A DNA stretch of 64,000 bases, from positions 6,699 to 70,698 of the forward strand of contig CAMAUZ010000028.1 in the NCBI GenBank assembly GCA_945861535.1, given 5' to 3'. The notes under the pieces were generated by a model, which was not told the DNA's origin, did not search any database, and saw nothing but the letters and a program-made list of their open reading frames with translations. Origin of the DNA: Akkermansia muciniphila. GTDB taxonomy: Bacteria > Verrucomicrobiota > Verrucomicrobiia > Limisphaerales > BJHT01. Shown here in pieces: positions 20,366 to 63,644 of this stretch. Position 1 is the first letter of the stretch; each line of letters starts with the position of its first letter. The translations under genes were made by a program, and so were the position numbers.

Positions 20366-21860
20366 TCATAAGTCCAGCACCTTGGGGAACTTGGAATGAA
20401 TCAGCGCGTGGAGCCGCTCCCGGCCGCCGCGAGCGGGGCGGAAGCGTTGCTGGAAGCTGCGGGTGTTGTGTTTGGTTTTGGGATGACGCCGGCGCGCCCG
20501 GTCCACGGCCGCGTTGGCCAGGCTCACGACCACGCGCCGGATCTTGCCCAGCGCGCGGGCGGCACGCGGGTTACGCACCCGGCTCTGGTCCTCCCCCAGC
20601 GTGAGGTCCAGGCAATGGTGCAGGCGGCTTTCGATGACCCAGTAACCCCGCTTGAGTTGCAGCAGCCCCTGGGCGTGCACCTCGGCCAGCGTCAGGCTGT
20701 ACAGCAGATAGATGATCTCCCGGCACCATTTGCGGTTACGCCTGACCTGCGTCGCCATGCGGGCGGCCAGGCGCGCGCCCGGAAAGCCCACTTGGCTGGG
20801 CGTCACTTCCTGGCAGTCCGGCAGGCGGATTTCCAGCCGTCCGCAGTTGCGCTCGCGTTTGCGCACCCGCGTCCACGGTGTGGGGCGAGGGGGAAAAAGC
20901 CTGTTGGGTGAACCGGCGTTCAAGGGTTTTCTGGAGGGTCAACTGGTTGCGTTTGACCGTGAACAGGTCGTGGCCGCCTTGGTGGTTGAGAATCTGCCCC
21001 GCGGTGTCCGTCTGGGTGTGGAGCGCGTCGGCCAGCACGAGTTTGCCCGTCAAATCCAGTTGCTGCAGCAGCCGGCGCGCGGCCGGGATTTCGTTGCTCT
21101 GCGCGGCCGTTACGACGCTGCCCAGAAACCGGCCCGCCGCGTTTACGGCGTTGACGGTTTCCACGCCGGCGTGCCGGATTTTTTTGCCATCGACGATGAC
21201 GATCCGGTCCTGCGTCGGTCCCCAAACCTGTTCCTGTCACCGCCGCAGCACCCGCTCCAGCGCGTCGTCCGCGACGGCCGTCAGGACCCGGTCGAAGGTC
21301 GTCTTGCCGGGACAGCGCCGCGCGCCGCTCTGGCGGTCGGCGTGAAACCGCGGCGCCCCAACTGGCCTTGCCTGAGCGTCGCGGCGTAATCGGCGAGATC
21401 CTGCGGCCCGCGCATCACCCCTTGCGCCATGGCCATGACGATTAGACCGATCCTCCCCGCCAGCGGATAGGCCAGCGACTCGGCCCGCCGAAACTCCGGC
21501 ACGTCGGCGCGCACCGCCGCCAGCAGGCTGCGGATTTCGCCTGTCTTGGCGGGGCAGCGCGGGGCCACCGCCGCCGCCACATGCGGCCAGGCTGGCGGCT
21601 GTTCGGCGGCGCGCAAGTTGACGCACTCTTTCTTCACGAGTTCGCGCCCCCAGATTTGGTTGGGCGCGTCGTTTTTTTCGTAATAATCGACCGCAGCGCG
21701 CCGTCACCCGGCCGTGCGGCCGAGCTGGGACCAGCCGCTGACTTTGTAGCCGGTGCCTTGATAAAAGCGGGGATCGTCGAAGGTCTCCCCAAGGCAAGCG
21801 GAGGGCCCCAGCGCTGCTCCCAGTCGGCCGCGAGCTGCCGGAGCCGCACCTTCGGTCAGG
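20366..21860 (-). mobile_element. Decayed DUF4338-ISAs1-family transposase (pseudogene)
   Basis: Joined fragments: LAADWEQRWG / ETFDDPRFYQGTGYKVSGW..LG.T.G (DUF4338-like); PEFRR....YPL (H-repeat region); IVDGKKIR, SNEIPAARRLL..LDL.G....DALHTQ, TVK.NQ.TL; RGYWVIESRLHHCLD....EDQSRVR (ISAs1 DDE). Several stops and frameshifts. Confidence 0.85.
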
Positions 21861-30411: not shown

Positions 30412-31191
30412 ATGGAAAATCCACTGCCGCCCTTGCAGGCGGGCACGCTGTATCTGGTGGCCACGCCCATCGGCAACCTCGAGGACATCACGCTGCGGGC
30501 GCTGCGGGTGTTGAAGGAATGCGGCGTCATCGCCGCCGAGGACACGCGGCGCACCGGGCAGTTGCTGAAACATTTCGGCCTCGCGAAACCGATGGTGAGC
30601 TATCACCAGCACAACGAGGCGCGCCGCACGGTCGAGATCGTCGAGCGGCTGGCGCGCGGCGAAATTGTGGCGCTGGTCACGGATGCGGGCAGTCCGGGCA
30701 TCAGCGATCCGGGCGAGCGCGTGGTGCGCGCGGCGCTGGCGGCGGGGCAGCGCGTCGAGCCGGTGCCGGGCGCGAGCGCGCTGGTGGCGGCGCTGACGGC
30801 GAGCGGGTTGCCGACGCGCGAGTTTCATTTCATCGGGTTTCTGCCGCACAAGTCGGGGCAGCGCCGTAATCGTCTCGCCGCGCTCGCGCCGCTGGAATGC
30901 ACGCTGGTTTTCTACGAGTCGCCGTTTCGCATCGGCAAGCTGCTGGGCGAATTGCAGGCGGCGTTTCCGCAGCGGCGCGTCGTGCTGGCGCGCGAACTGA
31001 CGAAGCGGTTCGAGGAGTTTTTGCGCGGCACGCCGGCGGAACTGCTGGCGGAATTGGAGCGGCGTCCGCGGAAGGGTGAGTTCGTCGTGCTGGTGGCAGG
31101 CGCAGGGGAGGGGGACGGCGAAAAGGGAGACGCGACGGCGGACGAAGAGGCGAAAGCGGAAGCGGAGAATGCCGAGCCGGCGGAAGATTGA
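30412..31191 (+). CDS. rsmI: 16S rRNA C1402 2'-O-methyltransferase
   Basis: [50 protein letters not shown]. Confidence 0.95.
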
Positions 31192-31198
31192 CGGGCGC

Positions 31199-31512
31199 CG
31201 GAGCGCGGCGTTTACGCCGCTTCAGCGTCACCATGGAGGGAGCTGTTGGAAACATTCTACCGTCCGCGATCGGTCCACGTTTTAGCGGCGTAAACGCCGC
31301 GCGCCTGGGGACAGCGCGCGAGCGCTGGCTTGGTACCGCAGGCGTCCATCCTGCGAGTTCGGGCGGCGTCTCGCCGCCCGTTTCCAAGGTCGACCACCCC
31401 CGCCGAACTGGGAACACGGGGCAGGGATGCCCCGCCAACTGGCAGGCAAGGATGCCTGCGCCACCCGGCTGGCGCGGACGCCATGCCACGGGCAAAAAAC
31501 TGAGCTGCGCCC
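31199..31512. repeat. REP cluster plus right half of the TIR-bounded element
   Basis: cggagcgcggcgtttacgccgc/gcggcgtaaacgccgcgcgcc doublet, a GTGGGGCAGG-family REPIN (31333-31464) and TIR ggcaaaaaactgagctgcgccc ending at 31512. Confidence 0.8.
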
Positions 31513-31539
31513 CGCGTTTGTTTGCACCGGAATCAGCCG

Positions 31540-31568
31540 TTGACACCCCCCGGGCGCTTTGCCACCGT
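31540..31568 (+). promoter_or_regulatory. Candidate sigma70 promoter for ppdK
   Basis: TTGACA-17 nt-CACCGT (weak -10), ~57 nt upstream of the ATG. Confidence 0.35.
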
Positions 31569-31625
31569 CCCGCCTCATTTCGGCGGCAGAGAACTATCGG
31601 AATTGACCCAATCCACCCTGGTTAT

Positions 31626-34388
<2,763 letters not shown>

Positions 34389-34473
34389 GTTTGTCCCCGC
34401 AAGGGGACCTTGTGCCACCGCTTCGGCGGGGAGCACGCAGGGTTAGCTCGCCCTCGTGGTGAGCGCCCACCAG

Positions 34474-34505
34474 GCCGCTCCGGGAAACCGGGGCGGCTTT
34501 TTTTT
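34474..34505 (+). terminator. Rho-independent terminator after ppdK
   Basis: GCCGCTCCGG-GAAA-CCGGGGCGGC followed by T8. Confidence 0.85.
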
Positions 34506-34556
34506 GCCGCCACGCCATCAATAAGCCGTGCCTATTCAGGCGAACCGAATTCTTTG

Positions 34557-35301
34557 ACCACAGAGACGTGATGAGCACAGGGCGGCAGCGCCGCAACCCA
34601 AGCGGAGCGCGGCCGTCCCGGCCGCAGCGGCAACACCGGAGCCGGGGCGCTGGGAATTGCTGGTGTTGTCGCAGGTGCGGAGCCGCTCCGCGCGGCAGCA
34701 CCGCAACCGCAGGAGCGCGTCCGGTCCCCGGTCGCAGCGCGGGATGCGGGAGAAGCGCGCGGAATTTTCCGACCGCTTTCGTGCGGCGGGCGCAAAAGGA
34801 AACGGATGATCTGGCTGCCGGAGCGCGCCGCCGCCTTCGGGGGGATGCAGCCGAGTTTGGCTGGGGAATATGGGGCAGGGGAATGGGGAGGTGACGAAGC
34901 GGGGACGGGGTGGGCGCGGCATGGAAAATCATCGCGGCACGCAAAAATTCTGCCGGGTTGTAGTACAGGGCGGCGAAGCCGCAACCAAAGGAGTGCGGGC
35001 GTCCCGACCGCAGCGGCAACACCGAAGCCCGGGCGTTGGAAATTTGTTCCGCCCTCGCAGGTGCGTAGCTGCCGCGGGCGGGACGCCCGCGCTCCGGAAC
35101 TCCTCGCGGCCCGCGAGGATTTCTCCCGGAGCGCGGCTGTGTGCGCGGAGCACCAGCCGCAGCAGGTTGGCTGCACGGGGAGCGTCTGATTTCCACGGGT
35201 GCCCACGACGTTTCGGGGCTGCTGCGGCTGGTCCTCGGCGGACACAGCCGCGCTCCGTCGGTTGCGGCCCCGCCGCTCTGTGTTCAGAGTGTCTCTGTGG
35301 T
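34557..35301. repeat. Nested REP mosaic bracketed by ACCACAGAGAC inverted arms
   Basis: Outer IR 34557-34597 / 35261-35301. Inside: two related CGGAGCGC REPINs (~34603, ~34991), the G-rich 31-mer (34857) and a GGAGCGCGGCTGTG REPIN (35128-35256). Confidence 0.8.
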
Positions 35302-35405
35302 GCTCACAGCGGTTTCCATTGCATGGTTACGATTAAGGGGATCGGAATCTCCCATCGAGGTTTGGCGCTGTCGGACCTGTGGCGGGCGGGGAGCCCGCGC
35401 TCGGC

Positions 35406-35444
35406 AAAGAAAAAAACGCGGCCCGGACACTCGTCCGGGCCGCG
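35406..35444 (-). terminator. Rho-independent terminator of the Ig-domain gene
   Basis: Minus strand CGCGGCCCGGAC-GAGT-GTCCGGGCCGCG followed by TTTTTTTCTTT. Confidence 0.85.
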
Positions 35445-35504
35445 CTGTCGGGGGCCGATGATTGGAAGGGTTGCGGTTACATCACGCGGCAGAGGTGGTG
35501 CCGT

Positions 35505-37589
35505 TCAATAGGTGTACACATTGACCCGGCCGGTGGCGGTGCCGCCATTGCCGTCGCTGATGGTGTAGGTGAAGTAGTCGGGCGTGTTGTAGCCGACGCG
35601 CGCCGTGTAATAGACCCGGGTGGAATCCTTGGTGATGGTCGCCCCGAGGAAGCTCAAGCTCGCGGTGCTGGTGAGCGTGAGCGTGTTGCCATCGACGTCC
35701 TTGTCATTGTTCAGGAGCGTGGAGATCAGGACCGAGACCGAGACGTTGACGGGGCGGTAGAGTGTGTCGGTGGTGACGGTCGGGGCATCGTTCACCGCAG
35801 TCACGGTGAGGGCGAACGTGGTGCTGGCGCTCAGGCCGTCGGGATCGGTGACGGTGACGGTGATGTTGGCGACGCCGTTGGAATTGGCCAGCGGGCTGAC
35901 GAGCAGGGTGCGGCTGGAGCCCGAGCCGCCGAACGTGAAGCCCGTGCTGCGGACCAGGTTGGTGTTCGAGGAGGTGGCGGTGACGGTGAGGTTGGTGGCC
36001 GCTGATTCAAAATCGCCAATGATGAATGTCATCGCGCCGGTGTTGCTGTCTTCCGCAATGGTCTTCGCGGGGATGGTCGTGATGGTCGGGGGCACCTTGA
36101 GGTTGTAGTTCAAGTAGGCCGTGCCGTAAGCGCCGTTCACGCCGTCCACGACGATGTAGTAGGTGAGGCCGGCGGTGGCGGCGAAGGTGAGGCGGCTGTC
36201 CAGCCCATCCAGGCCGCTGTTGTTGTCACAGGCCACGGAGATGAGGCTGGCGTAGCCGTTGCCCAGCCCGTCGTCGAGATACACGGCGAGGATCGTGTCG
36301 TAGCTGCTGCCGTCGGTGTTGAGGGTCATGACGCCGGTCGAGCCGGGCACGTAGCTGAGCCAGTAGGAGGAACCGCCCACCACGCCGCAGTGGTTGGGTT
36401 CGCCGGGGTCTTTGCCGAAGTGGGAGGCGAAGACCTGGGTGCCGGAGTAGCCGGTCACGGAGGTGATGCGGCGGCGCAGACCGCCGGTATTGATCGGGCC
36501 GCTGCGCAGGCCGGTGGCATCGGCGTCATCCTGGCGGTTGCGCAGGACTACGTTGAGCGCCCCCTCGGTGTTGATCTGCACTTCGGCGGCTTGCGACGTG
36601 ATGCTCTCGCCGGCCGAGGTCACGACCGCGCGGTAAACGCCCACGCCGGAATCCTGAAAATTCGGAATCACCAGAGCGGTGTTGGTGGCGCCGGGGATGG
36701 GGGCCGTCTCGAAGAGCCACTGGACCGTGGCGATGGCGTTGGTCTCGGAGAGCGACACCGCGAGCGACAGGGCCTCGCCGCGATTCAAGGACGTATGCGC
36801 GGGCTGGCCGGCGATGCCCGTCAGGACGACCGTGCTGGGGACGAAGTCCCATGCGAAGACAATGCTGCCGCCGTCACGATTCGCGCTGGAGACCACGAAC
36901 GAATAGGTCGTCCCCGCGTGGGCGTAGAAGGTGATGCGAGCGTTCTCGTAGCCGCCGTTGTCGTCGTCGTTGGCCACGAGTTGGAGGGCGTTCAGACTGG
37001 CACCGGTGTAGGCGGCCAGAATGCTATCAAAGGCGCTGCCAGCGGTGTTCACGGTCATCCGGCCATAGTCCGGCGCGGTCCATTTCAGCCACACCGTGCG
37101 GCGGTTCCGCGCGCCGGGATGATGGCGCGGTTCGTAGGGTTCCGTGTTGGCGGAACTGTTGTTCCCCGAACCGACGCCGGTGAGTCCCACGATTTCGCCG
37201 CGGGACGCAAACGCGTTGGCGAACGGCAGCGCGGGCACGCTCACGGTCAGGCTCGCCGGGTTGCTGTGATCGCTGCCGATGTCGTTCTGGGCGCGGACCG
37301 AATACAACCCCGCGTCGGCCGGCTGCACATTGGTCAACGTGAGGCTGGCGCTGGTCGCCCCGGGAATCGGAATGTCTTGGAGAAGCCATTGAAACGTCGG
37401 CGCGGGCGAACCGCTCGCGGCAACGGTGAACGTGACGGTGGCGCCGGGATTGACCGTTGCGCTGACCGGATTGGAGGTGATCGCCGCTCCGTCGCCCGCG
37501 AAACCCCGTGAACTCAACACTCCCGCCAGCACGGCGAAAGTGAGATAAAACCTGACCCTGCTGGTGATAGTTTCCCTCGTTGTTTTCAT
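35505..37589 (-). CDS. Secreted surface protein: 2x(Ig + PPC-like) plus cadherin/Big-like domains
   Basis: Signal peptide; P.P.FQW...IPGAT...L......DAG.Y Ig repeats; T.GS.FD..LA.Y....VA.D.. repeats; VTD.DG, VNDAP, LL.ND.D.DG, F.YTISDG.GG. Confidence 0.85.
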   Translation of the reverse strand: MKTTRETITSRVRFYLTFAVLAGVLSSRGFAGDGAAITSNPVSATVNPGATVTFTVAASGSPAPTFQWLLQDIPIPGATSASLTLTNVQPADAGLYSVRAQNDIGSDHSNPASLTVSVPALPFANAFASRGEIVGLTGVGSGNNSSANTEPYEPRHHPGARNRRTVWLKWTAPDYGRMTVNTAGSAFDSILAAYTGASLNALQLVANDDDNGGYENARITFYAHAGTTYSFVVSSANRDGGSIVFAWDFVPSTVVLTGIAGQPAHTSLNRGEALSLAVSLSETNAIATVQWLFETAPIPGATNTALVIPNFQDSGVGVYRAVVTSAGESITSQAAEVQINTEGALNVVLRNRQDDADATGLRSGPINTGGLRRRITSVTGYSGTQVFASHFGKDPGEPNHCGVVGGSSYWLSYVPGSTGVMTLNTDGSSYDTILAVYLDDGLGNGYASLISVACDNNSGLDGLDSRLTFAATAGLTYYIVVDGVNGAYGTAYLNYNLKVPPTITTIPAKTIAEDSNTGAMTFIIGDFESAATNLTVTATSSNTNLVRSTGFTFGGSGSSRTLLVSPLANSNGVANITVTVTDPDGLSASTTFALTVTAVNDAPTVTTDTLYRPVNVSVSVLISTLLNNDKDVDGNTLTLTSTASLSFLGATITKDSTRVYYTARVGYNTPDYFTYTISDGNGGTATGRVNVYTY

Positions 37590-37929
37590 AACTCGAATGA
37601 CCCTTGCTAACGCTGCCCCGACAATAATTGACCGTGACTTTACTGCTCCATCTATCCGCTGGTCCGCAAACCAGCCGACACCGGGAAGGTAGCAGCGGCG
37701 ATGCCACTCGGTGCGGCGGCGGATTCGGGTGAAATGGGGGGGTGTTTGCTGGAATCGAGCGGCGGTCCGTGGTCCGCTGGTCCGCGGTTGGACCGCGGCG
37801 GCACGGCGGTGGTCCGATCCGTAGCCGCTGACGTGAGGAAGCGGACCGCTCGCACCAGCGGACCGTGACCGGTCCCCGGTCGCAGCGACCTCGCACCCGC
37901 CGGGCTGCTCGAAAATCTCGCGGCACCCT

Positions 37930-38313
37930 GGGCGTATTTCAGTTTCTTGCAGGGTGGCTGGCAGACGCTGGTGTCAGCGCCCCCCGGCCTGAAAGGCCGT
38001 CAGAACCCAGCCTAGGGCTGAGTGCGTTAGCACGATGCCCTGGGTTACCACGCGCGAACGGATGAACGCGCCCTGAAAGGGCGCGAGAAGGTTTCGGGAC
38101 AGATGGCGCCAGAGAGCCTACGACTGCGCGGCTTCGTAAAGACATCTCGCGCGCCCCTTCAGGGCGCTGGTCGTGGGGCGACGGTTTTCCCAGGGCATCG
38201 CGGCGCTCAGCCCTGGGCTGAGTTCTGGCGGCCCGTTGGGCCGCGGGTGAAAGCGCTCCCCGGGTCACGGCCTGCAAGCTCCCAACCAGATTGCAAGAAA
38301 CTGAGATGCGCCC
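37930..38313. mobile_element. MITE-like element, 22-bp TIR, cargo of CCCTGAAAGGGC-type palindromes
   Basis: gggcgtatttcagtttcttgca ... tgcaagaaactgagatgcgccc; flanks ggcaccct / ggcaccca (7/8 direct repeat). Confidence 0.8.
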
Positions 38314-38390
38314 GGCACCCATTCCTTCCGACTTTCGCTTTGCCAACGAGGGGTGGAGTGGTTCAGCGTCCCGCGTTGCCCAACTCATTT

Positions 38391-39314
38391 ATGAAAACAT
38401 CTGTCCTTTCTCCCGTTCTGCTCCCACTCGTCACCGCCGCCGTTCTGCTCGGCTGCACCACGCCGCCGCACGCGGCCGAGAAGCTCTTTGTCGCAAAACC
38501 GCTGACCGAGGAGAAGGCGTTCACGCCGGGCATTGAAGGCCCCAATTGCGACCGCGACGGAAACATTTACGCGGTGAACTACGCCAAGCAGCAGACGATC
38601 GGGAGGACGACGTCGGACGGAAAGTCCGAGCTGTGGGTCACGTTGCCCGGCAAGAGCACTGGCAACGGCATTGTGTTCGACCGCGCGGGCGCGATGTATG
38701 TCGCCGATTACGTCGGCCACAACGTGCTCAAGATCGACGTGAAGACGAAGGCGATCTCGATCTTCGCGCATGAGGCGGGGATGAACCAGCCGAACGACCT
38801 GGCCATCGCGCCGGACGAAACGTTGTACGCGAGCGATCCAAGCTGGAAGGACGGCACCGGCCAGTTGTGGCGCATCGACCGCGCCGGCAAAACCACGCGC
38901 GTCGCCAAGGACCTGGGCACGACCAACGGCATCGAGGTCAGCCCCGACGGCAAGACGCTCTTCGTCAACGAAAGCGTGCAGCGCAACGTGTGGGCGTTTC
39001 CGATCCAGGCGGACGGCTCGCTCGGGGAGAAGCGGCTGGTGAAAAAATTCCCCGACCACGGCTTCGACGGCATGCGCGCGGACGTGGACGGCAATCTCTA
39101 CCTCACGCGCCACGGCAAAGGCACGGTCGTGAAAATGTCGCCCGCCGGCGAAATCTTGCAGGAGATCGATGTGCTCGGCCCCTTCCCGAGCAACCTCTGC
39201 TTCGGCGGACCGGATGGCCGCACGGTTTATGTCACCGAGGTGAAACACCAGCGCCTGGTGCAGTTCCGCGTGGATCGTCCGGGCCTCGCGTGGCAGCGGT
39301 GGCAGCAGAAGTAG
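38391..39314 (+). CDS. SMP-30/gluconolactonase family beta-propeller, probable lipoprotein
   Basis: LLGC lipobox-like; EGP, PNDL, NGI..SPDGK.L.V, DGM..D.DGNLY, PSN.CFGG.D..T.YVT. Confidence 0.92.
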   Translation: MKTSVLSPVLLPLVTAAVLLGCTTPPHAAEKLFVAKPLTEEKAFTPGIEGPNCDRDGNIYAVNYAKQQTIGRTTSDGKSELWVTLPGKSTGNGIVFDRAGAMYVADYVGHNVLKIDVKTKAISIFAHEAGMNQPNDLAIAPDETLYASDPSWKDGTGQLWRIDRAGKTTRVAKDLGTTNGIEVSPDGKTLFVNESVQRNVWAFPIQADGSLGEKRLVKKFPDHGFDGMRADVDGNLYLTRHGKGTVVKMSPAGEILQEIDVLGPFPSNLCFGGPDGRTVYVTEVKHQRLVQFRVDRPGLAWQRWQQK

Positions 39315-39320
39315 AACGCG

Positions 39321-39372
39321 GGGGGGAAGCTCAAAGCTCAAAGTTCAAAGTTCAAGGGAAGGGCCAAGAACA
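39321..39372. repeat. Solo heptamer-repeat arm (AAAGYTC)
   Basis: ggggggaagctcaaagctcaaagttcaaagttcaagggaag, same as the arms at 62592 and 62779. Confidence 0.8.
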
Positions 39373-39655
39373 AAGGGCCAAACCGCAGGTCGCCGGGGTG
39401 TCGCCGAAGGTGGCCCAATCTGCTGCCCGGAAGAAGGGGCGGATCGCGGTTTTCTGCAACGAGCAGGGCGCTGTGGCGCCGTCCCGCAGCGACGACTGAA
39501 AATCGACCAGCACGGAAGTGCTGGGCTATTGGCTTTCGCCCGCTGGGCTGGGCAGGGGAACCAGAGGGTGTGCGTTTAACTGAAATGCGCCCCGCGTGAA
39601 GCCAGCGCCATGATTTTTCTTCTCCGCGCTTGGGCCGCTGTCAGGGTGCCGCGGC

Positions 39656-40759
39656 ATGTTCGCACCAGCTTCTTCCCTGCCACCCACAGGTCCCGCCGCG
39701 CTCGCTGACTTCGATCCCGCCGGACTCGCGCAGTTGTTCGCGGGCTGGGGCTACAAACCCAGCCATGCGGCGCGGGTGCTGCGGGCGTTTTACGATGGCG
39801 ACGGACGGGGGCATCCGGCCGCGGCGGGCTTGCCTGCGGGACTGGGCGAGCGGGTGCGCAGCGAGTTCGCTGCGGGCGCGGCGACGCTGGCGGCGCGGCA
39901 GGTGGCGGGCGATGGCACGACGAAACTGCTGCTCCGGCTCGGCGACGGGAGCACGGTGGAGTCGGTGCTGATGCCGGATTTTCGCGCGGATCGGGCGGCG
40001 GGTTGTCTGTCGTCGCAGGTGGGGTGCGCCATGGGATGTGATTTTTGTGCGACGACCAAGACGGGCTTCGAGCGGAACCTCACGGCGGGAGAAATCGTGG
40101 AGCAGTTTCTGGCGCTGCGCCGCGAGGCGCACGCGGTCGGGCGCCGGCTGCAAACCATCGTGTTCATGGGCATGGGCGAGCCGCTGCTCAATCTCGACGC
40201 GGTCCTCGCGGCGGTGCGGCGGCTGGCGGACAATTCGCTCGGCGCGCTGGGGTGGCGGCAGATCACGGTCTCGACGGTGGGCATCGTGCCGGGCATCGAC
40301 GCGCTCACGGCCACGGGGCTGAACTTTCACCTCGCCGTCTCTCTGCACGCGCCCGACGACGCCACGCGCGCCCGGTTGCTGCCGATGGGGCGGCGCTTTC
40401 CCATCGCGGACATCCTCGCGGCGGCGGACCGTTTTCAAGCCCGTCGCGGCCGGCCCGTGACGATCCAGTATTGCCTGCTGGCGGGAGTGAATGACTCGCC
40501 CGAGCACGCGCGGCTGCTCGCCGAAGTGCTCGGCTCGCGCCGGATGCACATCAATCTGCTGCGCTACAATCCCACCGGCCTGAGCCTGCGCGGCATCGCC
40601 TACGAACGCTCGTCCGATGAGACCGCCGAGGCGTTCGCCGCAGGGTTGCGCGGGCGCGGATTGGTCGCGCATTTCCGGCGTTCGCGCGGCCCGGACATCG
40701 ACGCGGCGTGCGGGCAGTTGCGGCGGCGGAACGAGGGACTGGTGGAGAAATCCGGCTAG
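39656..40759 (+). CDS. rlmN: RlmN-family radical SAM RNA methyltransferase
   Basis: DGT.K, CLSSQVGCAMGCDFCAT, RNLT.GEI, FMGMGEPL.N, SLHAP, R.SRG.DI.AACGQL. Confidence 0.85.
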   Translation: MFAPASSLPPTGPAALADFDPAGLAQLFAGWGYKPSHAARVLRAFYDGDGRGHPAAAGLPAGLGERVRSEFAAGAATLAARQVAGDGTTKLLLRLGDGSTVESVLMPDFRADRAAGCLSSQVGCAMGCDFCATTKTGFERNLTAGEIVEQFLALRREAHAVGRRLQTIVFMGMGEPLLNLDAVLAAVRRLADNSLGALGWRQITVSTVGIVPGIDALTATGLNFHLAVSLHAPDDATRARLLPMGRRFPIADILAAADRFQARRGRPVTIQYCLLAGVNDSPEHARLLAEVLGSRRMHINLLRYNPTGLSLRGIAYERSSDETAEAFAAGLRGRGLVAHFRRSRGPDIDAACGQLRRRNEGLVEKSG

Positions 40760-40771
40760 CGATGGGTGCCC

Positions 40772-40904
40772 CGGAGCGCGGCTGTGTCCCGCGTCGCGCG
40801 GGATCAGCCGCAGCACGCCGCGATGGGAAGGCACCTCGAAATTCTCCTGGCCACCTCGCGAGTCGAGCCGCTGCGGCTGGTCGCGGCGACGCAGCCGCGG
40901 TCCG
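40772..40904. repeat. REPIN, CGGAGCGCGGCTGTG family
   Basis: cggagcgcggctgtgtc..cagccgcagc ... gctgcggctgg..gacgcagccgcggtccg; same family as 35128-35256. Confidence 0.8.
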
Positions 40905-40917
40905 GGTGCGCGCCTCG

Positions 40918-41182
40918 GGGCGCATTCCAGTTTCCTGCAACCTTGGGCAGGCACGGGTGCCGTGCTCGCGGAAACTTGCGGCGGCACGCACGCGGGCGGG
41001 GTGGGGCAGGCATCCTTGCCTGCCAGTTCGGGCGGCATCCCTGCCGCCCGTTTCCATGGCCGAGCACCTTCGCCGAACTGGGAACACGGGGCAGGGATGC
41101 CCCGCCAACTGGCAGGCAAGGATGCCTGCCCCACCCGGCTGGCGCGGTCGCGACGCCGCGTGCAGGAAACTGAGCTGCGCCC
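40918..41182. mobile_element. MITE-like element, same TIR, cargo of GTGGGGCAGGCATCCTTGCCTGCC REPIN
   Basis: gggcgcattccagtttcctgca ... tgcaggaaactgagctgcgccc; colinear over its full length with the reverse complement of 46976-47241. Confidence 0.85.
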
Positions 41183-41233
41183 GCGACTGCGGCGGGCGTT
41201 GCGTGCGGCGGGCGTGCGGGTTAGAAAAACGAC

Positions 41234-41581
41234 ATGAACTGGCACGAGGTCATGGATGAGCGGAGTCTGGAATTGCATCAGGTGATTGCCCGCGAACTGC
41301 GGGCCGATCCGGCCAAACTGGACCGCGTCGTGGCGTGGATGGAGCGGTTTCTCAGCGATCCCGAGTACTCGATCCAATCCAAAGATGCGTTGCAGGAATG
41401 GCGGAAGATCATCCAGCAGGGCTTGCCGCGGGTGCTGGCGGCGCTGGCGGATGACAGCGACGAGGGCCAACGGATGCGCCAGAGCAGCCCCTTCGCGGTG
41501 ATCATGCCGCAGGACGAACGGGCGGAGATTTTTGCGAAGTATGAAGCGCGCCGACCTCGAACACATCTTGCGGGCGTGTAA
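41234..41581 (+). CDS. Small helical protein, putative antitoxin
   Basis: RSLELHQVIA...EW...RMRQSSPFA pattern; 115 aa; overlaps the next gene by 41 nt. Confidence 0.75.
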   Translation: MNWHEVMDERSLELHQVIARELRADPAKLDRVVAWMERFLSDPEYSIQSKDALQEWRKIIQQGLPRVLAALADDSDEGQRMRQSSPFAVIMPQDERAEIFAKYEARRPRTHLAGV

Positions 41582-42086
41582 GGGCACGACCGGCGAGACG
41601 GAGTTTATCGTCGTCGGCAGCCAGGCAATCCTCGGAAAATTTCCCGATGCGCCGCGCGTGCTGCGGGAGTCCATGGAGGCCGATGTTTATCCCAAGCTGC
41701 GTCCCGACCTGGCTCCCTTTCTCGACGGGAATCTCGGCGAGCTTTCCCTGTTCCATCAGACCCACGGCCTTTGGGTGGACGGTGTCTCCACGACCACGGC
41801 GACGCTGCCCGCCGGTTGGGAGGCGCGCTTGGTGAAGGTGTGCAATGAAAACACCGCGGGGGCCATCGGCTGGTGTCTCGATCCGCACGACATCGCCTAC
41901 AGCAAGCTGGCGGCGCGGCGGGAGAAGGACCTGGCGTACGTGGCGGCGCTGGTGCGGCACAAAATGATCCGGCCCGCGGCGATGGAGAAGCAGTTCGCCG
42001 GCACGCCCGACGCCGCGCTGCGGGCACGGCTGACGGAGGCCTGGGGTATCTGCCGGCGGCGCGCCGCCACGCCGGAAGCGGCGTAG
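41541..42086 (+). CDS. DUF6036-like nucleotidyltransferase
   Basis: M...LEHILRA, IVVGSQAILG, SMEAD (GS..DxD-like NTase motif), GELS.FH.THG, LP.GW..RL, CL.PHD...SKL.A.REKD. Confidence 0.8.
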   Translation: MKRADLEHILRACKGTTGETEFIVVGSQAILGKFPDAPRVLRESMEADVYPKLRPDLAPFLDGNLGELSLFHQTHGLWVDGVSTTTATLPAGWEARLVKVCNENTAGAIGWCLDPHDIAYSKLAARREKDLAYVAALVRHKMIRPAAMEKQFAGTPDAALRARLTEAWGICRRRAATPEAA

Positions 42087-42110
42087 GAGACTCGGGCCGG
42101 AGCGCTGGCG

Positions 42111-42563
42111 ATGCCTGACGTTTTCACGAAAACCAAGCGGTCGGCGGTGATGGCGCGCATCCGCTCGCGGGGGAACAAGGCCACGGAACTGGCGCTGGTG
42201 CGGGTGTTCCGGACGCTGCGGATTACGGGGTGGCGGCGGCATATTCCAATTCGGCATTCGCCATTCGCCATTCGCAGTTTCCAGGTTCGTCCGGATTTCG
42301 TTTTTCCCAAGCTCCGGCTGGCGGTGTTTGTGGACGGGTGCTTTTGGCACGGCTGTCCGCAGCACGCGACGCAGCCGAAAGGTAATGCGGCATTTTGGCG
42401 GAAGAAGTTCGCGGCGAACCAGGCGCGCGACCGGCTCGTGACTCGCACCCTGCGGCGGACGGGCTGGCGGGTGTTGCGCATCTGGGAACATGCGCTGGCC
42501 CGCAAGCACGCGGCGGCTTTGGAACGACGGCTGCGGCGGGCAACGCAGCCGGGCAGTCGGTGA
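42111..42563 (+). CDS. vsr: Very short patch repair endonuclease
   Basis: MPDVFT..KRS.VM..IRS, T.E, PDF.F, VFVDGCFWHGCP, FW..K...N..RD, GW.V.RIWE. Confidence 0.92.
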   Translation: MPDVFTKTKRSAVMARIRSRGNKATELALVRVFRTLRITGWRRHIPIRHSPFAIRSFQVRPDFVFPKLRLAVFVDGCFWHGCPQHATQPKGNAAFWRKKFAANQARDRLVTRTLRRTGWRVLRIWEHALARKHAAALERRLRRATQPGSR

Positions 42564-42588
42564 CGCGCCGTTCGCAGATCTTGGTTTT

Positions 42589-42680
42589 GTAGGAGACGAC
42601 GTAAGGAGACTCTGACCTTTTCCCCAAGTGCGGCACCGTCGCGCAGAAGGAGGCTAGAGTCTCCTCACGTCGTCTCCTAC
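42589..42680. repeat. GTAG-type REP doublet
   Basis: gtaggagacgacgtaaggagactct ... agagtctcctcacgtcgtctcctac. Confidence 0.88.
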
Positions 42681-42686
42681 AAGGGA

Positions 42687-43970
42687 TTATTTTCGCCCGG
42701 CCCCAGCGGCGGGCAGGGCGTCTTTGCCGTCGGTGAGCCACTCAAGATTGAAGCGGGCGACGGTGAGGAGGCCGGTGCGGTAGATGTCTTTTCCATCGGT
42801 GCTGCCGCGTTCGTAGAAGAGGAGGATGGTTCCGTCGTTGGCGACGGCGAGGTCGCTGTAGCCGCTGAAACCAGGCTCGATGGTCTTGGTCACGGGCCAG
42901 GTCACCGACTCGTCGTAGCTGAGTTTCACAGAGACGTTTTTGCGGTCGCGGCCTTTGCCAGGGGCTTCCTTGCCATCAGTGCGGGAGAGGTTGTGGGGGT
43001 TGGAGAACAGGAGGCGGTGCTTGTCGCTCGCGGGGGCTTCGCTCAGGCGGACCATGCTCGCCATGCAGATCGGTTCGAGCAGTTGGTCGTGAAACTGGGG
43101 CTGGCTCCAGCCGGTCGCGCCGTCGCGGCTGGTGGTGAGGAGACGGCGGTTGGCCTTGGATTCACTGCGCATGTTCAGGAGCACACGGCCGTCGGCGAGT
43201 TGCGCGGCGCAGGTTTCGTTCGGGATGTTCCAGTCGCCGGTGTTGGGTCCGGCGATCTCGCCGCGCAGCCAGGTGCGCCCGTGGTCGTCGCTGTAAATGA
43301 CCGACGTGACCGAGGGCCGGTGGGCGTGGCCGCCCGTGCCGAGCGAGAGCCAGACGGGCACGACGAGCCGGCCGTTCTGGAGCTGGATGCCGTGGCCGGG
43401 GCCGGTGGCGAGGACTTTCCAATCGTACTCGGGGCGGAACTTGTCGAAGGATGCGGTGATCTCGACGGGCGGCGTCCAGGTGAGGCCGTCATCGTCGCTG
43501 CGCAAATAGAAGCAGCGGGCGTATTCGAGACAGAAGAGGAAGTGGACCGCGCCGTTCGCGTCGGCGATGGCGAGCGGGTTGTTGTAGGTGACCTCGCCGG
43601 GCGTCGCGAGTTTCTGGGCGAGCGCGACGGGGTTTTTGGCTTTCGGTCCGGGGACGTTGGCGAGCGTGGTGCGTGGTCCCCAGGTCTTGCCGCCATCGGC
43701 CGAGCGACGCAGGAGGATGTCGATCTGGCCCCAATCGCCGCGGTCGTTTTTGCGCGCTTCGCAGTACGCCAGCACGGTGCCGCGCTTCGTCACGACGATG
43801 CCGGGGATGCGGTAAAGTTTGTAGCCCTCCTGGCTTGCCGTGAAGAGATCGACCTTCTCGAGGAACGGCGCGGCGGCGTGGGCCGGGGTGGTGAGGACGG
43901 CGGCGCAGAGGAGCGCACGGAGGGCGGCGACAAGATTCATGGGAATGAGTTTGGGCACGGGGTCGGACAT
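42687..43970 (-). CDS. Sialidase-family (GH33, BNR repeat) glycoside hydrolase
   Basis: Signal peptide; YRIP motif; Asp boxes SADGGKTW, SDDDGLTW, SDDHGRTW, SRDGATGW, SYDESVTW; GYSDL. Start 43970 or 43940. Confidence 0.92.
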   Translation of the reverse strand: MSDPVPKLIPMNLVAALRALLCAAVLTTPAHAAAPFLEKVDLFTASQEGYKLYRIPGIVVTKRGTVLAYCEARKNDRGDWGQIDILLRRSADGGKTWGPRTTLANVPGPKAKNPVALAQKLATPGEVTYNNPLAIADANGAVHFLFCLEYARCFYLRSDDDGLTWTPPVEITASFDKFRPEYDWKVLATGPGHGIQLQNGRLVVPVWLSLGTGGHAHRPSVTSVIYSDDHGRTWLRGEIAGPNTGDWNIPNETCAAQLADGRVLLNMRSESKANRRLLTTSRDGATGWSQPQFHDQLLEPICMASMVRLSEAPASDKHRLLFSNPHNLSRTDGKEAPGKGRDRKNVSVKLSYDESVTWPVTKTIEPGFSGYSDLAVANDGTILLFYERGSTDGKDIYRTGLLTVARFNLEWLTDGKDALPAAGAGRK

Positions 43971-44002
43971 TGCAAGCAGACGACAGGTTCAGGGGCGCAG
44001 CT

Positions 44003-44272
44003 GGGCGCATCTCAATTTCTGGCAGACGGTCTGGCTCCCGCACCGCGCGTGTGGGGCAGGCATCCTTGCCTGCCAGTTCACGGGGCATCCTTGCCCCGTG
44101 TTCCTGCCCGGTGACCTGCCCCGCCGTCGGCCGTTGGGAACGGGCGGCAGGATGCCGCCCGAACTGGCAGGCTGGAAGCCTGCCCCACGGCACCGGAACC
44201 TCCGCACGCCTTGGCCTCTTTACGGGACGGCGCCAACGCGCACCGATCGTGGCAAGAAACTGAGATGCGCCC
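44003..44272. mobile_element. MITE-like element, same TIR, variant GTGGGGCAGG REPIN cargo
   Basis: gggcgcatctcaatttctggca ... ggcaagaaactgagatgcgccc; flanks ggcgcagct / ggcgcatct (8/9 direct repeat). Confidence 0.85.
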
Positions 44273-44307
44273 GGCGCATCTGCGCGCGGCCTCCGTGTGG
44301 CGCAGAG

Positions 44308-44620
44308 TTCCAAGTCTCAGACATCCTGATCTCTGGCAACATCGTCGCCCGGACCGTGACCGGAGGGATCTGTCTTCACGCGGGAAAGAACAATCTGGTC
44401 GCGAACAACCTTCTGGTGGACGGACGGGACCGGCAGGTGCATCTCCACCCCGAGGGACCGGACCTGACCGGCAGCCGGTTCGTGCGCAACAGCGTGGCTC
44501 ATTCCCGGCCGCCGGCGGAATTTCTTTGCCTGTTCCAGTCCTGGAAGCGGAACCAGCGGGGACGGTTTTCCGGGTGCGACAAGAACCTCTACTGGGTCAC
44601 GGGCGCGGTCATCGCGGGAC
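44308..44620 (+). pseudogene. C-terminal fragment of a right-handed beta-helix protein
   Basis: DILISGNIVARTVTGGICLHAGKNNLVANNLLVDG...FVRN...CDKNLYW; no start codon, begins just after the MITE. Confidence 0.6.
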
Positions 44621-44695
44621 TCCCGCCGTCTCGACGGGGAAGTTTTGGAAGCGCTCCTGCCGATGGCTGCTCCCGCGCCGGCCGGCATCGCGCCG

Positions 44696-46567
44696 TCAGG
44701 GAATCACCGGCAGCAGGATGTGCGACGGGCGCTCGGGATTGTGATGCAGCGTATTCTTGGCCGTGACCATGCTTCGGTGCCGGTTGAGCGGTTCGCCGGT
44801 GTTCGGGTTCACATCGAAGCGCGGGAAGTTGCTGCTCGAAATGTCCACCCGGATGCGGTGGCCCCGCTTGAAGACGTTTGAGGTGGGGTAGAGCTTGATC
44901 GTGATGGGATACACGGTGCCCGGCTGCATCAGTTTCTCCTGCTTGAGCGAGTCACGGAAGCGCGCCCGCACAATGCCGTCGGCGATGTTCAGGTCGAATC
45001 CACCCGGGAAATCCGCGCCGGGCGGATACACGTCGATCAACTTCGCGGTGAAATCGGTGTCCACGGCCAAAGAACTTGCCCACAGCCGCACTTCGAGTTC
45101 TCCCGTGACCTCGGTGTCCTGGGGCAGCGGCTCAGTCTGGAAAACGAGCACGTCGTTGCGCGCGGAGAGGGGGAGGGGTTTCGGCCAGTTCCAGAAGTTG
45201 GTGCCGCCCCGTTGATCCCACGCGCCCTGCTGCATGATGCCATCGCCGGAGGAAATGTTGCCGCCCAGCGTGGGCACGGGATGGCGTGGGTCGAACTCGA
45301 AGCTCGTGGTGGCGCCGGGGGCGGAGGGTTTCTGCGGGCTCAAACCGCCGCCCGGTTGCAGGTAAAACGCCGTCGTCCGCGTGCGTGCCAGCGGCCACTC
45401 CTGCTCGTCGCGCCAGTAGCCGCCGTGGTGGAGCAGGCCCGCTTCCGTCTTGCGCCCGTCGCCGGTGCCCATGACGAACAGTCGCACCTTCGTGGCAAAG
45501 GGCGCGGCTCTGCCTACCGAGTTGTCGAGCCCCTTGAGCCATTTGTCATACCACTCCAGTCGCCACGCCCATTGGTCGGGCACGGCTGCCGACGGCCCGA
45601 ATGACACCTGACCATGTGCGGACTTATCCTGCGCGCCATGAATCCAAGGCCCCATGATCAGATACACCGGGCTGCGGATTGCCTTGGTCAATGCCGTGAA
45701 ATTGGCCGTGGTGTTCCCGGCCCACGAGTCATACCAGCCGCCGACCAGATAGACCGGCAAGTCCTGGTAGCGTCCGGGGAAGTCCACGATGTTGTTTTGC
45801 TCCCAGAAGGAATCGTTCGCCCCGTGCTCCATGGCATCGACCAGCCATTCCTCGAATTCGGGCGCGAGCTTCAGCGGCGTGGTGCCGCGGCGCAGCGGGA
45901 GCTGGCGAAGATACTCGTGGCGATGGTCGGCCATTTCCTTGAGCACGGCCGCCGTGGCCGGGTCGCGGGCGGCGCGGCTGCCGCGGCCGGCGTTGAGCAT
46001 GATCCAGTTCCAAAACCGCAGCTCGAACGCGCCGGCGTTCCGCATGCTTTGCCGGCCCATGTTCGCCACCGCGTCCACGGGAATGACCGTCTTGAGCTGC
46101 GGCACGCCCTCCATCGCCATCGCGTGCTGCGTGCCGCCGACGTAACTGGTCCCGATCATCCCGATCTTACCGTCGGACCACGGCTGCGCGGCGATCCACG
46201 CGGCGCAGTCGGCCCCGTCCTTGCCGTCATCCGTCAACCAATGCCAGACACCTTCCGAGCCGTAGCGCCCGCGCGTGTCCTGCGCCACGAAAACATAGCC
46301 GTGCGCCGCGTAGTATTTGCCCGGGATCGTGCCACCCGTTTTGTTGTAAGGCGTGCGCGTGAGAATCACGGGGAAACGCCCTGTCACGGCCTGTCCATCC
46401 TTCGCGGGCAGGTAAAGGTCGGTCGTGAGTTTCACGCCGTCACGCATGGCAACCACGATGTTGGTGCGGACGATCACCTGGAACTCGGCGTCCCGCGCGG
46501 CAGCGGTGCAGGCAAACACGAGCGCTCCGGCGAGGGTGGACAACAGGGGAACGAGCGGGAGTTTCAT
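44696..46567 (-). CDS. CocE/NonD family hydrolase (S15)
   Basis: Signal peptide; MRDGV.L.TD.Y.P, RTPY, QD.RG..GSEG, WSDG.IGM.GTSY.G, GGWYD, GPW.H, SSSNFPRF..N.NTG. Confidence 0.94.
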   Translation of the reverse strand: MKLPLVPLLSTLAGALVFACTAAARDAEFQVIVRTNIVVAMRDGVKLTTDLYLPAKDGQAVTGRFPVILTRTPYNKTGGTIPGKYYAAHGYVFVAQDTRGRYGSEGVWHWLTDDGKDGADCAAWIAAQPWSDGKIGMIGTSYVGGTQHAMAMEGVPQLKTVIPVDAVANMGRQSMRNAGAFELRFWNWIMLNAGRGSRAARDPATAAVLKEMADHRHEYLRQLPLRRGTTPLKLAPEFEEWLVDAMEHGANDSFWEQNNIVDFPGRYQDLPVYLVGGWYDSWAGNTTANFTALTKAIRSPVYLIMGPWIHGAQDKSAHGQVSFGPSAAVPDQWAWRLEWYDKWLKGLDNSVGRAAPFATKVRLFVMGTGDGRKTEAGLLHHGGYWRDEQEWPLARTRTTAFYLQPGGGLSPQKPSAPGATTSFEFDPRHPVPTLGGNISSGDGIMQQGAWDQRGGTNFWNWPKPLPLSARNDVLVFQTEPLPQDTEVTGELEVRLWASSLAVDTDFTAKLIDVYPPGADFPGGFDLNIADGIVRARFRDSLKQEKLMQPGTVYPITIKLYPTSNVFKRGHRIRVDISSSNFPRFDVNPNTGEPLNRHRSMVTAKNTLHHNPERPSHILLPVIP

Positions 46568-46975
46568 TAGAGCTGTGAGCTTTGTGACTCATCCCGGTGG
46601 CGTCAAAACCAAATCGCACGCGCCGCGTTCATGGCCTTGAACAGCAGATGCAATTCAGCGCGGTATGGACTCTGTTCCCCGGCAATTGCCCCGGGAGTTC
46701 ATGCTGGCACGGCTTGACACCCCGTCCGGCCTCGGTTGGCAGGTCCGACAGGCGTAGCAGACCGGACTGTTCCGGGGCGGGAGAAGCGGTTGTCATGACT
46801 GGGCTCGGATTCGCCATGGTTTTCTGCCGGTCGGAATCACGGAATCGATCCCTCATTGCCCATCGCCTGCCGTCGCGCACCGTCATCAGCGGTGGTATTG
46901 AAATCGGCATGCGGGCGCGGACCTGCGTGAACCACGACGTTCGCGCGACACGCAGGTGCCCGCGCGCGGCCACGC

Positions 46976-47241
46976 AGGCGCATCGCAGTTTCTTGCACGC
47001 GGCTTGGCGTCCGCGCCAGCCGGGTGGGGCAGGCATCCTTGCCTGCCAGTTGGCGGGGCATCCCTGCCCCGTGTTCCCGGTTCCGCGTGGGATGCTCGAC
47101 CATGGAAACGGGCGGCAGGGATGCCGCCCGAACTGGCAGGCAAGGATGCCTGCCCCACCCCGCCCGCGCGCGTGCCGCCGCAGGTTTCCTCGAGAACGGC
47201 ACCCGTGCCTGCCGAAGGTTGCAGGAAACTGAGATGCCCCC
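46976..47241. mobile_element. MITE-like element, inverted copy of 40918-41182
   Basis: aggcgcatcgcagtttcttgca ... tgcaggaaactgagatgccccc; flanks gcgcggccacgc / gcgcgcccacgt (10/12). Confidence 0.85.
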
Positions 47242-47304
47242 GCGCGCCCACGTGTTCGTTTGATTGCGGTTGACCCCACCTGCGGTGCTCGCCATGTTCG
47301 CCGC

Positions 47305-48087
47305 ATGACCCGTTTTAGTACGCGCCCTGGCGGCGCATTTACGTTGATCGAATTGCTGGTGGTCATTGCCATCATTGGCATCCTGGCCAGCATGTTGTTG
47401 CCCGCCCTTGGCAAGGCCAAGGCCAGAGCCAAAGGCACCCAATGCAACAGCAACATGAGGCAGGTCATGATGGGCACCACCCAGTATATCGAGGACTGTA
47501 ACGGTTACATTCCTCCCATGGGGATGGACAAGGTGGTGTCTTTTCCAGGCCTTCAAAATGCTGCGCCAAGTGGCACGCTGTGGATCACCAACATGGCCTA
47601 CTATTATTGGCCGGACATCATGCGGCCCTATCTGGGAACCCGCTCCATTATCACCTGTCCGACGGTGACCGACTCCGCGAAACTGGGAATTGGGATGACC
47701 TATTGCCAGGTGCTCGCGGGCACGATTGGGATTCTCGATCCCTCCAATGCCGGTCAGCTCAAGCGCGAGTCGATGATTGCTCGCCCGAGTGAGACGGTAT
47801 TTTTCGGGGACGCCGGAGATGTGACGCCGGCGACCCTGGGTTTGGCCCCGGACCAATGGGTCGGGGATCCCGCTGGAGCGGGCACCCAGTTCTTTCGCAT
47901 TCCCGATCCCGGGGCGGTGGTTGCCGGTTGGGGATCGTGGGGGGCGAGAACCGAACGGATGTTCAATCGTCATGACGGACGGGTGAACGTCGCCCTGATG
48001 GACGGACGGACCGAATACTTCTCAGTCAGCAAGGTCGGCTTCCAATACCCCGCGGGTGACCTGCTGAGTTGGTGGGATACCAAGTGA
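47305..48087 (+). CDS. Prepilin-type N-methylation protein with H-X9-DG motif (DUF1559-like)
   Basis: [28 protein letters not shown]...QC..N.RQ; C-terminal [13 protein letters not shown]. Confidence 0.92.
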
Positions 48088-63412: not shown

Positions 63413-63644
63413 GTGGGCCGGGTTCCAGCCTGCCGGTTCGGACGGCATCCATGCCGCCCGTTCCGCCGGCGGAACTGGGAACACGGGGCAGGGATGCCCC
63501 GTGAACCGGCAGGCAGGGATGCCTGCCCCACCTGTGCGCGGCGCGCGGGCGTCCCACCCGCTCAGGACGCCCGCCCACGCGAACGTGCCAAATCCACCAT
63601 CCATTCCGGAGTTCGTACCGAGCGACCGGGACGGTCGCGCTCCG
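63413..63644. repeat. REP cluster: GTGGGGCAGG REPIN (63413-63531) plus CGGAGCGC-type doublet
   Basis: gaactgggaacacggggcagggatgccccgtgaaccggcaggcagggatgcctgccccac; gcgcgcgggcgtcccacccgc ... gcgaccgggacggtcgcgctccg. Confidence 0.8.

Follow-up and report, generated by a model that had tools for sequence, protein, structure and literature searches.

Gene-less repeats with ISKra4-type ends and a preferred distance to promoter-like hexamers in a Verrucomicrobiota genome

A 64,000-nucleotide stretch of an assembly labelled Akkermansia muciniphila (G000:C28:6699-70698, hereafter the window) contains four short intergenic elements which share one terminal inverted repeat (TIR) and enclose palindromic DNA of more than one kind. 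The question raised by this locus is what these elements are, which enzyme moved them and how one pair of ends came to hold different insides. The original prediction, made from the sequence alone, viewed them as an undescribed system in which a Mutator-like DDE transposase (IS256, ISKra4 or ISLre2) spreads clusters of repetitive extragenic palindromic (REP) sequences that are themselves linked to HUH-type REP-associated tyrosine transposases (RAYTs). In the current study the window was analysed together with the remainder of its own assembly (G000, a 7.94-Mb draft of 169 contigs with 64% G+C and a completeness of 96.6%) and with related genomes. We conclude, with a probability of roughly 0.8, that the repeats are gene-less miniature transposable elements with inverted repeats (MITEs) which possess the ends of an ISKra4-type (Mutator-like, p-MULT 4) insertion sequence (IS), generate 9-bp target-site duplications (TSDs), home to promoters and carry hairpin repeats as passengers.

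Shared ends and target-site duplications

The 22-base TIR GGGCGCATCTCAGTTTCTTGCA is matched nine times in the window at three mismatches or fewer, compared with no match in 100 shuffles. Across the genome 223 ends were recovered at up to four mismatches, 17 of them exact, and these form 70 adjacent inverted pairs whose lengths peak at 264-279 bp, which is the picture of many short copies with common ends that is expected of a MITE family. Duplicated target DNA flanks a large part of these pairs: perfect 9-mers were observed in 12, matches of 8/9 in 16 and of 7/9 in eight, while four possess a perfect 8-mer. A match of at least 8/9 over 9 bp, the duplication sought in a MITE, is thereby present in 28 of the 70 pairs, whereas 479 of 500 permutations of the flanks were devoid of any such pair (maximum two) and flanks displaced by 10 bp yielded none. 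The predicted duplications of 8-9 bp are thus borne out beyond chance at the genome level, and are mainly 9 bp in length. The original prediction was to be abandoned if the TIRs proved mostly unpaired or if their flanking repeats were no better than chance; given the pairing (70 pairs as against 83 unpaired ends among the 223) and the near-zero outcome of the permutation and displacement controls, neither is the case.

The elements of the window are listed below with the hexamers that lie beside them; letters denote cargo types and L1 to L3 subterminal linkers.

31338..31512, minus strand: one-ended element, core A with a single TIR (31491-31512, minus strand, 3 mismatches); second TIR absent
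31540..31545, plus strand: TTGACA, 27 nt past the TIR tip, upstream of a pyruvate phosphate dikinase gene
37930..38313, plus strand: 384-bp MITE, cargo type C (own palindrome set), flanking repeat 7/8
38340..38345, plus strand: TTGCCA, 26 nt past the right tip, upstream of an SGL/gluconolactonase-like gene
39437..39592, plus strand: 156-bp type-B MITE, internally deleted, with 5 mismatches in each TIR
40918..41182, minus strand: 265-bp A1 MITE (core A between linkers L1 and L3), in opposite orientation to 46976-47241
43970..43975, minus strand: TTGCAA, 27 nt past the left tip of the following element, facing a minus-strand BNR-repeat gene
44003..44272, plus strand: 270-bp MITE of subfamily A2 (core A with the type-B right linker), flanking repeat 8/9
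46976..47241, plus strand: 266-bp MITE of subfamily A1
47270..47275, plus strand: TTGACC, 28 nt past the right tip
63413..63532, no strand assigned: free core A, a palindromic double-hairpin unit without TIRs

Eight of the TIR matches, at 37930 (+), 38292-38313 (-), 40918 (+), 41161-41182 (-), 44003 (+), 44251-44272 (-), 46976 (+) and 47220-47241 (-), delimit the four complete elements of 384, 265, 270 and 266 bp at the positions originally proposed. Their relationships were also correctly read: 46976(+) and 40918(-) are full-length inverted copies which align end to end in opposite orientation, the element at 44003 has only the core and the ends in common with these two and differs in its linkers, and that at 37930 holds other palindromes. 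The palindromic unit described without TIRs at 63413 is a free core A. Two further ends, at 39592 and 31512, had been regarded as solo ends, and a search at up to six mismatches was used to revise them. The former is actually the right end of the 156-bp element at 39437-39592, while the latter is indeed a single TIR but belongs to the one-ended core-A element at 31338-31512. Two of the three flanking repeats proposed for the window, 7/8 at 37930-38313 and 8/9 at 44003-44272, stand, but the third (10/12, at 46976-47241) requires a gap; no flanking repeat in register was found at 40918-41182. All six TIR-bearing elements are intergenic and occupy consecutive gaps across 16 kb (31338-47241). This represents a mild enrichment: when loci were placed at random, five of them (at up to four mismatches) came to lie within 16 kb in 22 of 1000 trials.

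The partner insertion sequence and the distance to promoter-like hexamers

An autonomous element with the same ends is present in a related metagenome genome (L049:3001-4473). This IS is 1473 bp in length, is bounded by perfect 22-bp inverted repeats (IRs) identical to the MITE consensus, and is flanked by the 9-bp duplication GTGGCGGAC. Its single open reading frame (ORF) encodes 473 aa and scores 226.2 bits on NF033572 (transpos_ISKra4, cut-off 205) and 66.7 bits on the ISLre2 model (cut-off 200); the score above the ISKra4 family cut-off is that of the partner IS. Four distinct copies, identical in sequence, were found, with duplications of 9/9 in three and 8/9 in one. Elements of the ISKra4 group are reported to make 9-bp duplications and to have ends starting with GGG. 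The repeats of the present genome differ from the group in being without a gene, the 22-bp ends alone being held in common with the IS, and they are, as proposed, small non-autonomous TIR elements. Concerning the predicted DDE enzyme, the proposal holds: an ISKra4-family IS with identical ends occurs in another genome, and none was found in the assembly itself. The claim of an undescribed system must give way to that of a MITE family belonging to a described IS group. No description of ISKra4-derived MITEs or of this family was found in the open-access literature searched, subscription journals and ISfinder lying outside the search.

The ends are widespread. Of 41 genomes belonging to this order, 15 (the present one included) contain the TIR at up to two mismatches, while a reversed-pattern control gave no match in any of the 41. 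Homologues of the partner transposase (E of at most 1e-10) were detected in 13 of these 41 genomes, the present one not among them, and one genome of the order has, where a contig ends, a transposase fragment of 77% identity which terminates in a TIR with four mismatches. A scan with one genome per species returned at least 119 stretches which hold the TIR; among the stretches listed, nearly all are metagenome-assembled genomes (MAGs) of Verrucomicrobiota (Opitutales, Limisphaerales, Pedosphaera, Verrucomicrobiales), with a few MAGs labelled otherwise. Among the same listed stretches, a few TIR-bearing records (L038, L047, L060 and others) are labelled Klebsiella sp., Bifidobacterium sp., Sumerlaeota or Baltobacteraceae, and we suspect that the labels or the binning of these MAGs are unreliable. 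In a passage of Guerillot et al. 2014 (PMC3942029) on p-MULT 4, Verrucomicrobiota are not among the phyla given.

Several other candidates for the partner were considered and set aside. A member of the IS256 family is not supported, as PF00872 (Transposase_mut) has no match in the genome and is not among the Pfam matches of the partner at E of 0.01 or less. Six PF01609 loci and one locus with an NF033572 fragment in the genome have no TIR nearby at up to seven mismatches. The TIR pair spanning 2345 bp in another genome (G028) consists of two partial MITEs around ordinary ORFs, which we take by eye to resemble a PIN-domain toxin and MsrA, and the pairs of 975 and 1163 bp in the genome itself come from adjacent or decayed elements and span no gene of the size of a transposase. 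The sequence inward of the unpaired ends has nothing in common beyond MITE content, and no contig end in the assembly carries an outward-running TIR. Within the window, a DDE_Tnp_1 (PF01609) fragment of 36.8 bits lies at 20874-21203 on the minus strand, with no MITE ends nearby.

The original account left out one feature, namely the fixed distance at which the elements lie upstream of promoter-like hexamers. A TTG starts at offset 27 outward from the TIR in 49 of the 223 flanks, compared with 0-9 flanks at other offsets, save 13 at the adjacent offset 26. Taking offsets 26-28 together, 71 of the 223 flanks carry TTG; the other 3-nt windows average 9.9 such flanks and never exceed 14. When the 70 two-TIR elements are considered, TTG is present on one flank in 38 and on both in three, and four of the six window elements have a fitting TTG. 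Neither end is preferred in facing it (L1 17/53, L3 14/32, L2 9/34). In flanks aligned on TTG, A and T reach 52% and 51% at bases 2 and 6 of a -10 hexamer following a 17-nt spacer. The loci of other genomes display the same spacing, TTG being found at offset 27 in 43 of 163 distinct flanks, while no distance peak was seen beside the free cores or beside a second MITE family, E, which is described below. To judge by position, the MITEs home to promoters.

Comparison of orthologous sites fits this homing, as different subfamilies precede the same gene in two species. The SGL-type gene is preceded by the type-C element in the present genome and by a 277-bp type-B element with an 8/9 duplication in a congener (G001; L146 (G001:C461) 1178-1454), each lying about 26-28 nt upstream of a TTG, the hexamer of the congener having been read by eye.

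Fixed spacing of this kind has a published counterpart. Guerillot et al. 2014 (PMC3942029) report that thirteen ISKra4-group ISs, and likewise TnGBS/ISLre2 elements, insert upstream of sigma-A promoters at a constant spacing, and that the near-perfect-IR ISs of the ISKra4 group do so on either side. The present elements resemble that group in the near-perfect IRs of their partner, in its transposase scoring above the NF033572 cut-off, and in insertion upstream of sigma-A-type promoters on either side; here the hexamers stand at 27 nt, and their identity as promoters is inferred. They likewise resemble the TnGBS integrative and conjugative elements and ISLre2 ISs (p-MULT 3), for which the same source gives 15-17 bases upstream of the -35 box. 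They differ from TnGBS/ISLre2 in that the partner transposase falls far below the ISLre2 cut-off and in that insertion shows no orientation preference.

The hundreds of natural insertion sites with exact spacing, to which 71 flanks here and 43 in other genomes contribute, bear on how transposases of the TnGBS/ISLre2/ISKra4 type locate promoters. As the ends are identical across much of Verrucomicrobiota, the rule of targeting can be read directly, and so can the promoter motif used in this little-studied phylum.

The passengers and how they may have been acquired

Clustering of the 70 pairs resolved the following types, which have only the 22-bp ends in common.

Type A: about 265-273 bp, 44 copies
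Type B: about 278 bp, 14 copies
Type D: about 460 bp, 2 copies
Unnamed type: about 210 bp, 2 copies
Singletons, including the 384-bp type C of the window: various sizes, 8 copies

The interchangeable inside that had been proposed is therefore real, one TIR pair being found with A, B, C and D cargo and core A also without TIRs. Subterminal linkers behave as modules: L1 adjoins 79 ends (A cargo in most cases, B in others), L2 adjoins 36 (mostly B, some A), and L3 adjoins 34 with A only, such that subfamily A1 is composed of L1, core A and L3, and A2 (including 44003-44272) of L1, core A and L2. In other genomes the same ends enclose further insides of 131-662 bp, with 9/9 duplications in three printed examples. 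This provides a case from nature in which a single pair of transposase ends moves numerous unrelated passengers, REPIN-like (REP doublet forming hairpin) units among them, and such a multi-passenger shell bears on the spread and persistence of small palindromic repeats.

Core A is a palindromic doublet of about 134-156 bp with two hairpins per arm, bounded by GTGGGGCAGG...CCTGCCCCAC and by some 11 weakly conserved bases outside each side. BLAST with the A consensus located 257 loci, including 76 full and 75 half cores without a TIR, 45 with two ends and 29 with one end. No direct repeat in any register of 0-39 bases was found at 69 exactly placed free cores, and 125 of 138 free-core sides are without a linker or end remnant. 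Compared with the MITE-borne cores, the free ones are of greater age or diversity, the median pairwise identity being 0.796 for free and 0.881 for MITE-borne cores. In a tree of 139 cores, which has few columns and many open forks, the MITE-borne cores fall mainly into two short-tip clades, one of 38 rows (30 with two TIRs, seven with one, one free) and one of 23 (11, seven and five, respectively; support 96/93). Since these two clades correspond to A1 and A2, the shell took up core A in no fewer than two lineages. Core B, of about 197 bp, also occurs free: 14 loci hold at least 70% of the inside of B and no TIR, and six of 12 examined begin at consensus position 34-43 and end at 235-247.

Type D has a different history, as its 460 bp comprise a form of about 227 bp known from a congener together with a nested 225-bp unit, E, which has its own ends and a 9/9 duplication, GAAGCCGGG. 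Family E (225 bp, ends TATGTGTTTAGCGCC..., 9-bp duplications) is represented by 29 full-length loci, G000:C39:22953-23177 being one, all of them outside the window; eight of the 29 have duplications of at least 8/9. Its own ends and duplications thus identify E as a second DDE-type MITE and not a REP. Consequently, the claim that the cargo consists of REP clusters agrees with the REPIN-like build of core A, but not with the unit nested in the 460-bp elements. Upstream of the window, at G000:C28:1-188, a type-D element is broken after CATTAG by low-GC DNA which reaches the contig start and whose reverse translation, by eye, presumably resembles the C-terminus of an IS630-type transposase.

Concerning the means by which cargo was exchanged, it is possible, although we incline against it as the general explanation, that insides were swapped by homologous recombination or gene conversion between copies, followed by decay, and that one-ended and chimeric forms are products of recombination. 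The 29 core-A loci with a single TIR, most of which have no duplication at a fixed far boundary, would be accounted for in this manner, as would the joining of core A to the type-B right linker in A2 (L2 is carried by 11 of 86 sides of two-TIR core-A elements) and the presence of L1 with both A and B cargo. The nested E, with its 9/9 duplication, argues against this, as at least E entered by transposition; for core A, the data are compatible both with recombination and with nesting followed by deletion.

The hybrid originally envisaged, in which the cargo is a true REP or REPIN moved by an HUH-type RAYT such that the same DNA is subject to DDE chemistry as a shell and HUH chemistry as a core, appears unlikely. 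REPIN/RAYT systems are reportedly those of Bertels and Rainey from 2011. In comparison with the account in bioRxiv 10.1101/2021.07.10.451892, core A shares with these its inverted hairpin doublet, its abundance and divergence and its lack of a TSD, the last being what HUH transposition predicts, and differs in that no unit-flanked RAYT was found and in that its units also reside within a DDE shell. The genome does possess nine Y1_Tnp matches, and several Y1 genes have their own hairpin repeats on both sides, including three single-copy IS200-like genes, each with its own hairpin-repeat family:

G000:C15:35467-35988, single-copy IS200-like Y1 gene
G000:C128:9494-9946, single-copy IS200-like Y1 gene
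G000:C29:62860-63303, single-copy IS200-like Y1 gene

Core-A hairpins flank both sides of none of the nine Y1 loci; at one locus a half core lies about 300 bp downstream, beyond the repeats of the locus itself. None of the 10 core-A arm pairs spaced 200-3000 bp apart in the whole assembly faces inward, so no gene-sized arm pair of that orientation exists there. Six Y1 proteins were scanned: the IS200/IS605 model is passed by four, and the best score on the RAYT model, 50.4 bits, stays below its cut-off of 80. Comparison of the RAYT flanks with the MITE insides gave short hairpin matches only, near some unpaired ends. A GTAG or CGTC tag at one unit end is a REP feature according to PMC3733652; the arms of core A start with GTGGGG and no such tag is found at the boundary as drawn, which is soft. 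Against the hybrid also stands the type-D cargo, which is a TSD-making MITE. The absence of a duplication and the doublet build, set against the lack of a flanked RAYT, therefore lead us to regard core A as REPIN-like while its membership of a RAYT system, and with it the proposed link of the cargo to a RAYT, is not supported. Should a tyrosine enzyme nonetheless move core A, the same DNA would be under two transposition chemistries.

Proposed mechanism, age of the family and further repeats

The MITE interpretation would operate as follows. The two ends would be bound by a transposase acting in trans and brought together by the palindromic inside; the enzyme would make a 9-bp staggered cut and may be directed to promoters of the sigma-70 type, in line with what has been reported for ISKra4-group elements (PMC3942029), and anything located between two ends would travel along. 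Core A would have been taken up by the shell in two or more lineages (A1 and A2) and afterwards multiplied by the DDE route. The palindromic inside is compatible with such pairing, as the foldback of an element reaches -114.8 kcal/mol compared with -69.6 +/- 3.9 in shuffles (z = -11.6), with a long hairpin that pairs both ends.

The bacterial MITEs Correia/NEMIS, RUP and Nezha, moved in trans by DDE ISs, are a precedent (listed in PMC3733652) and resemble the present family in their TIRs and TSDs, sizes of 130-460 bp, lack of transposase coding capacity, intergenic location and strong foldback. The present family differs in that one TIR pair encloses a variety of unrelated insides (A1, A2, B, C and D at the least) and in that insertion is aimed at promoters. 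The kind of element is therefore known, and what is notable is that the homing distance is exact, that the ends are identical throughout a phylum and that independent palindromic repeats were captured repeatedly.

A number of observations weigh against this interpretation. No ISKra4-type transposase was found in the 96.6%-complete draft by protein search; tblastn of the partner transposase against the genome gave a best E-value of 0.87, and the family model returned one fragment of 29.6 bits (C4:80231-80413). As the autonomous element with the same ends is known from the other genome (L049) and not from this assembly, we infer mobilisation in trans for the organism itself. The 83 of 223 ends without a partner at up to four mismatches represent a considerable proportion, many being copies whose second end is lost or has decayed beyond that limit. 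With regard to homing, 29 of the 70 two-TIR elements have no TTG at this distance, a full TANNNT at 16-18-nt spacing follows in only 13 of the 71 TTG-bearing flanks, and a strict sigma-70 consensus scan of 31000-48000 (17 kb) found one site, not beside an element, where 1.7 were expected. Furthermore, the hexamer lies 27 nt from the tip, or 18 nt past the duplication, and not at the 13-17 bp from the IR-genome junction reported in PMC3942029, unless the counting differs. Finally, the two most similar A copies share 96.7% identity and the two most similar B copies 95.0%, with no copy pair above 96.7%, and neither three congeners nor public contigs supplied a clean empty site. The congeners are 80-91% identical in genes, but between genes their DNA has diverged too far for such a site, while public contigs break at repeats, leaving joints with short sides (21-42 letters) from which neither a usable empty site nor a judgement on mobility could be obtained. 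Because no transposase is present in the assembly and the closest copies reach only 96.7%, the family in this genome is probably a fossil, or dependent on a partner that is unassembled or has since been lost.

That the repeats are not mobile at all but are regulatory modules kept by selection upstream of promoters, as their intergenic position and fixed distance from promoter-like hexamers might suggest, is very improbable in view of the 9-bp duplications of unrelated target sequence, the occurrence of both orientations (21 of 44 type-A copies are reversed), the ends shared with an IS and the different subfamilies before the same gene in two species.

Assuming mobile MITEs, one might speculate that the shell is a promoter-homing vehicle which repeatedly picked up non-homing hairpin repeats, strong foldback being favoured since it joins the ends and insulates the promoter from read-through, a proposal that we regard as doubtful. 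If true, the passengers would gain a second, faster and targeted means of spread, and the host would gain tolerable insertions.

From the viewpoint of annotation, the family accounts for a large share of the intergenic repeats of its genome. No Rfam family was detected in the window at gathering score. Three short stretches of the window (42586-42685, 47331-47446 and 39317-39386; about 70-115 bp) have many matches, often on both strands, in three congeners and a high summed contig depth, and represent further intergenic repeat families.

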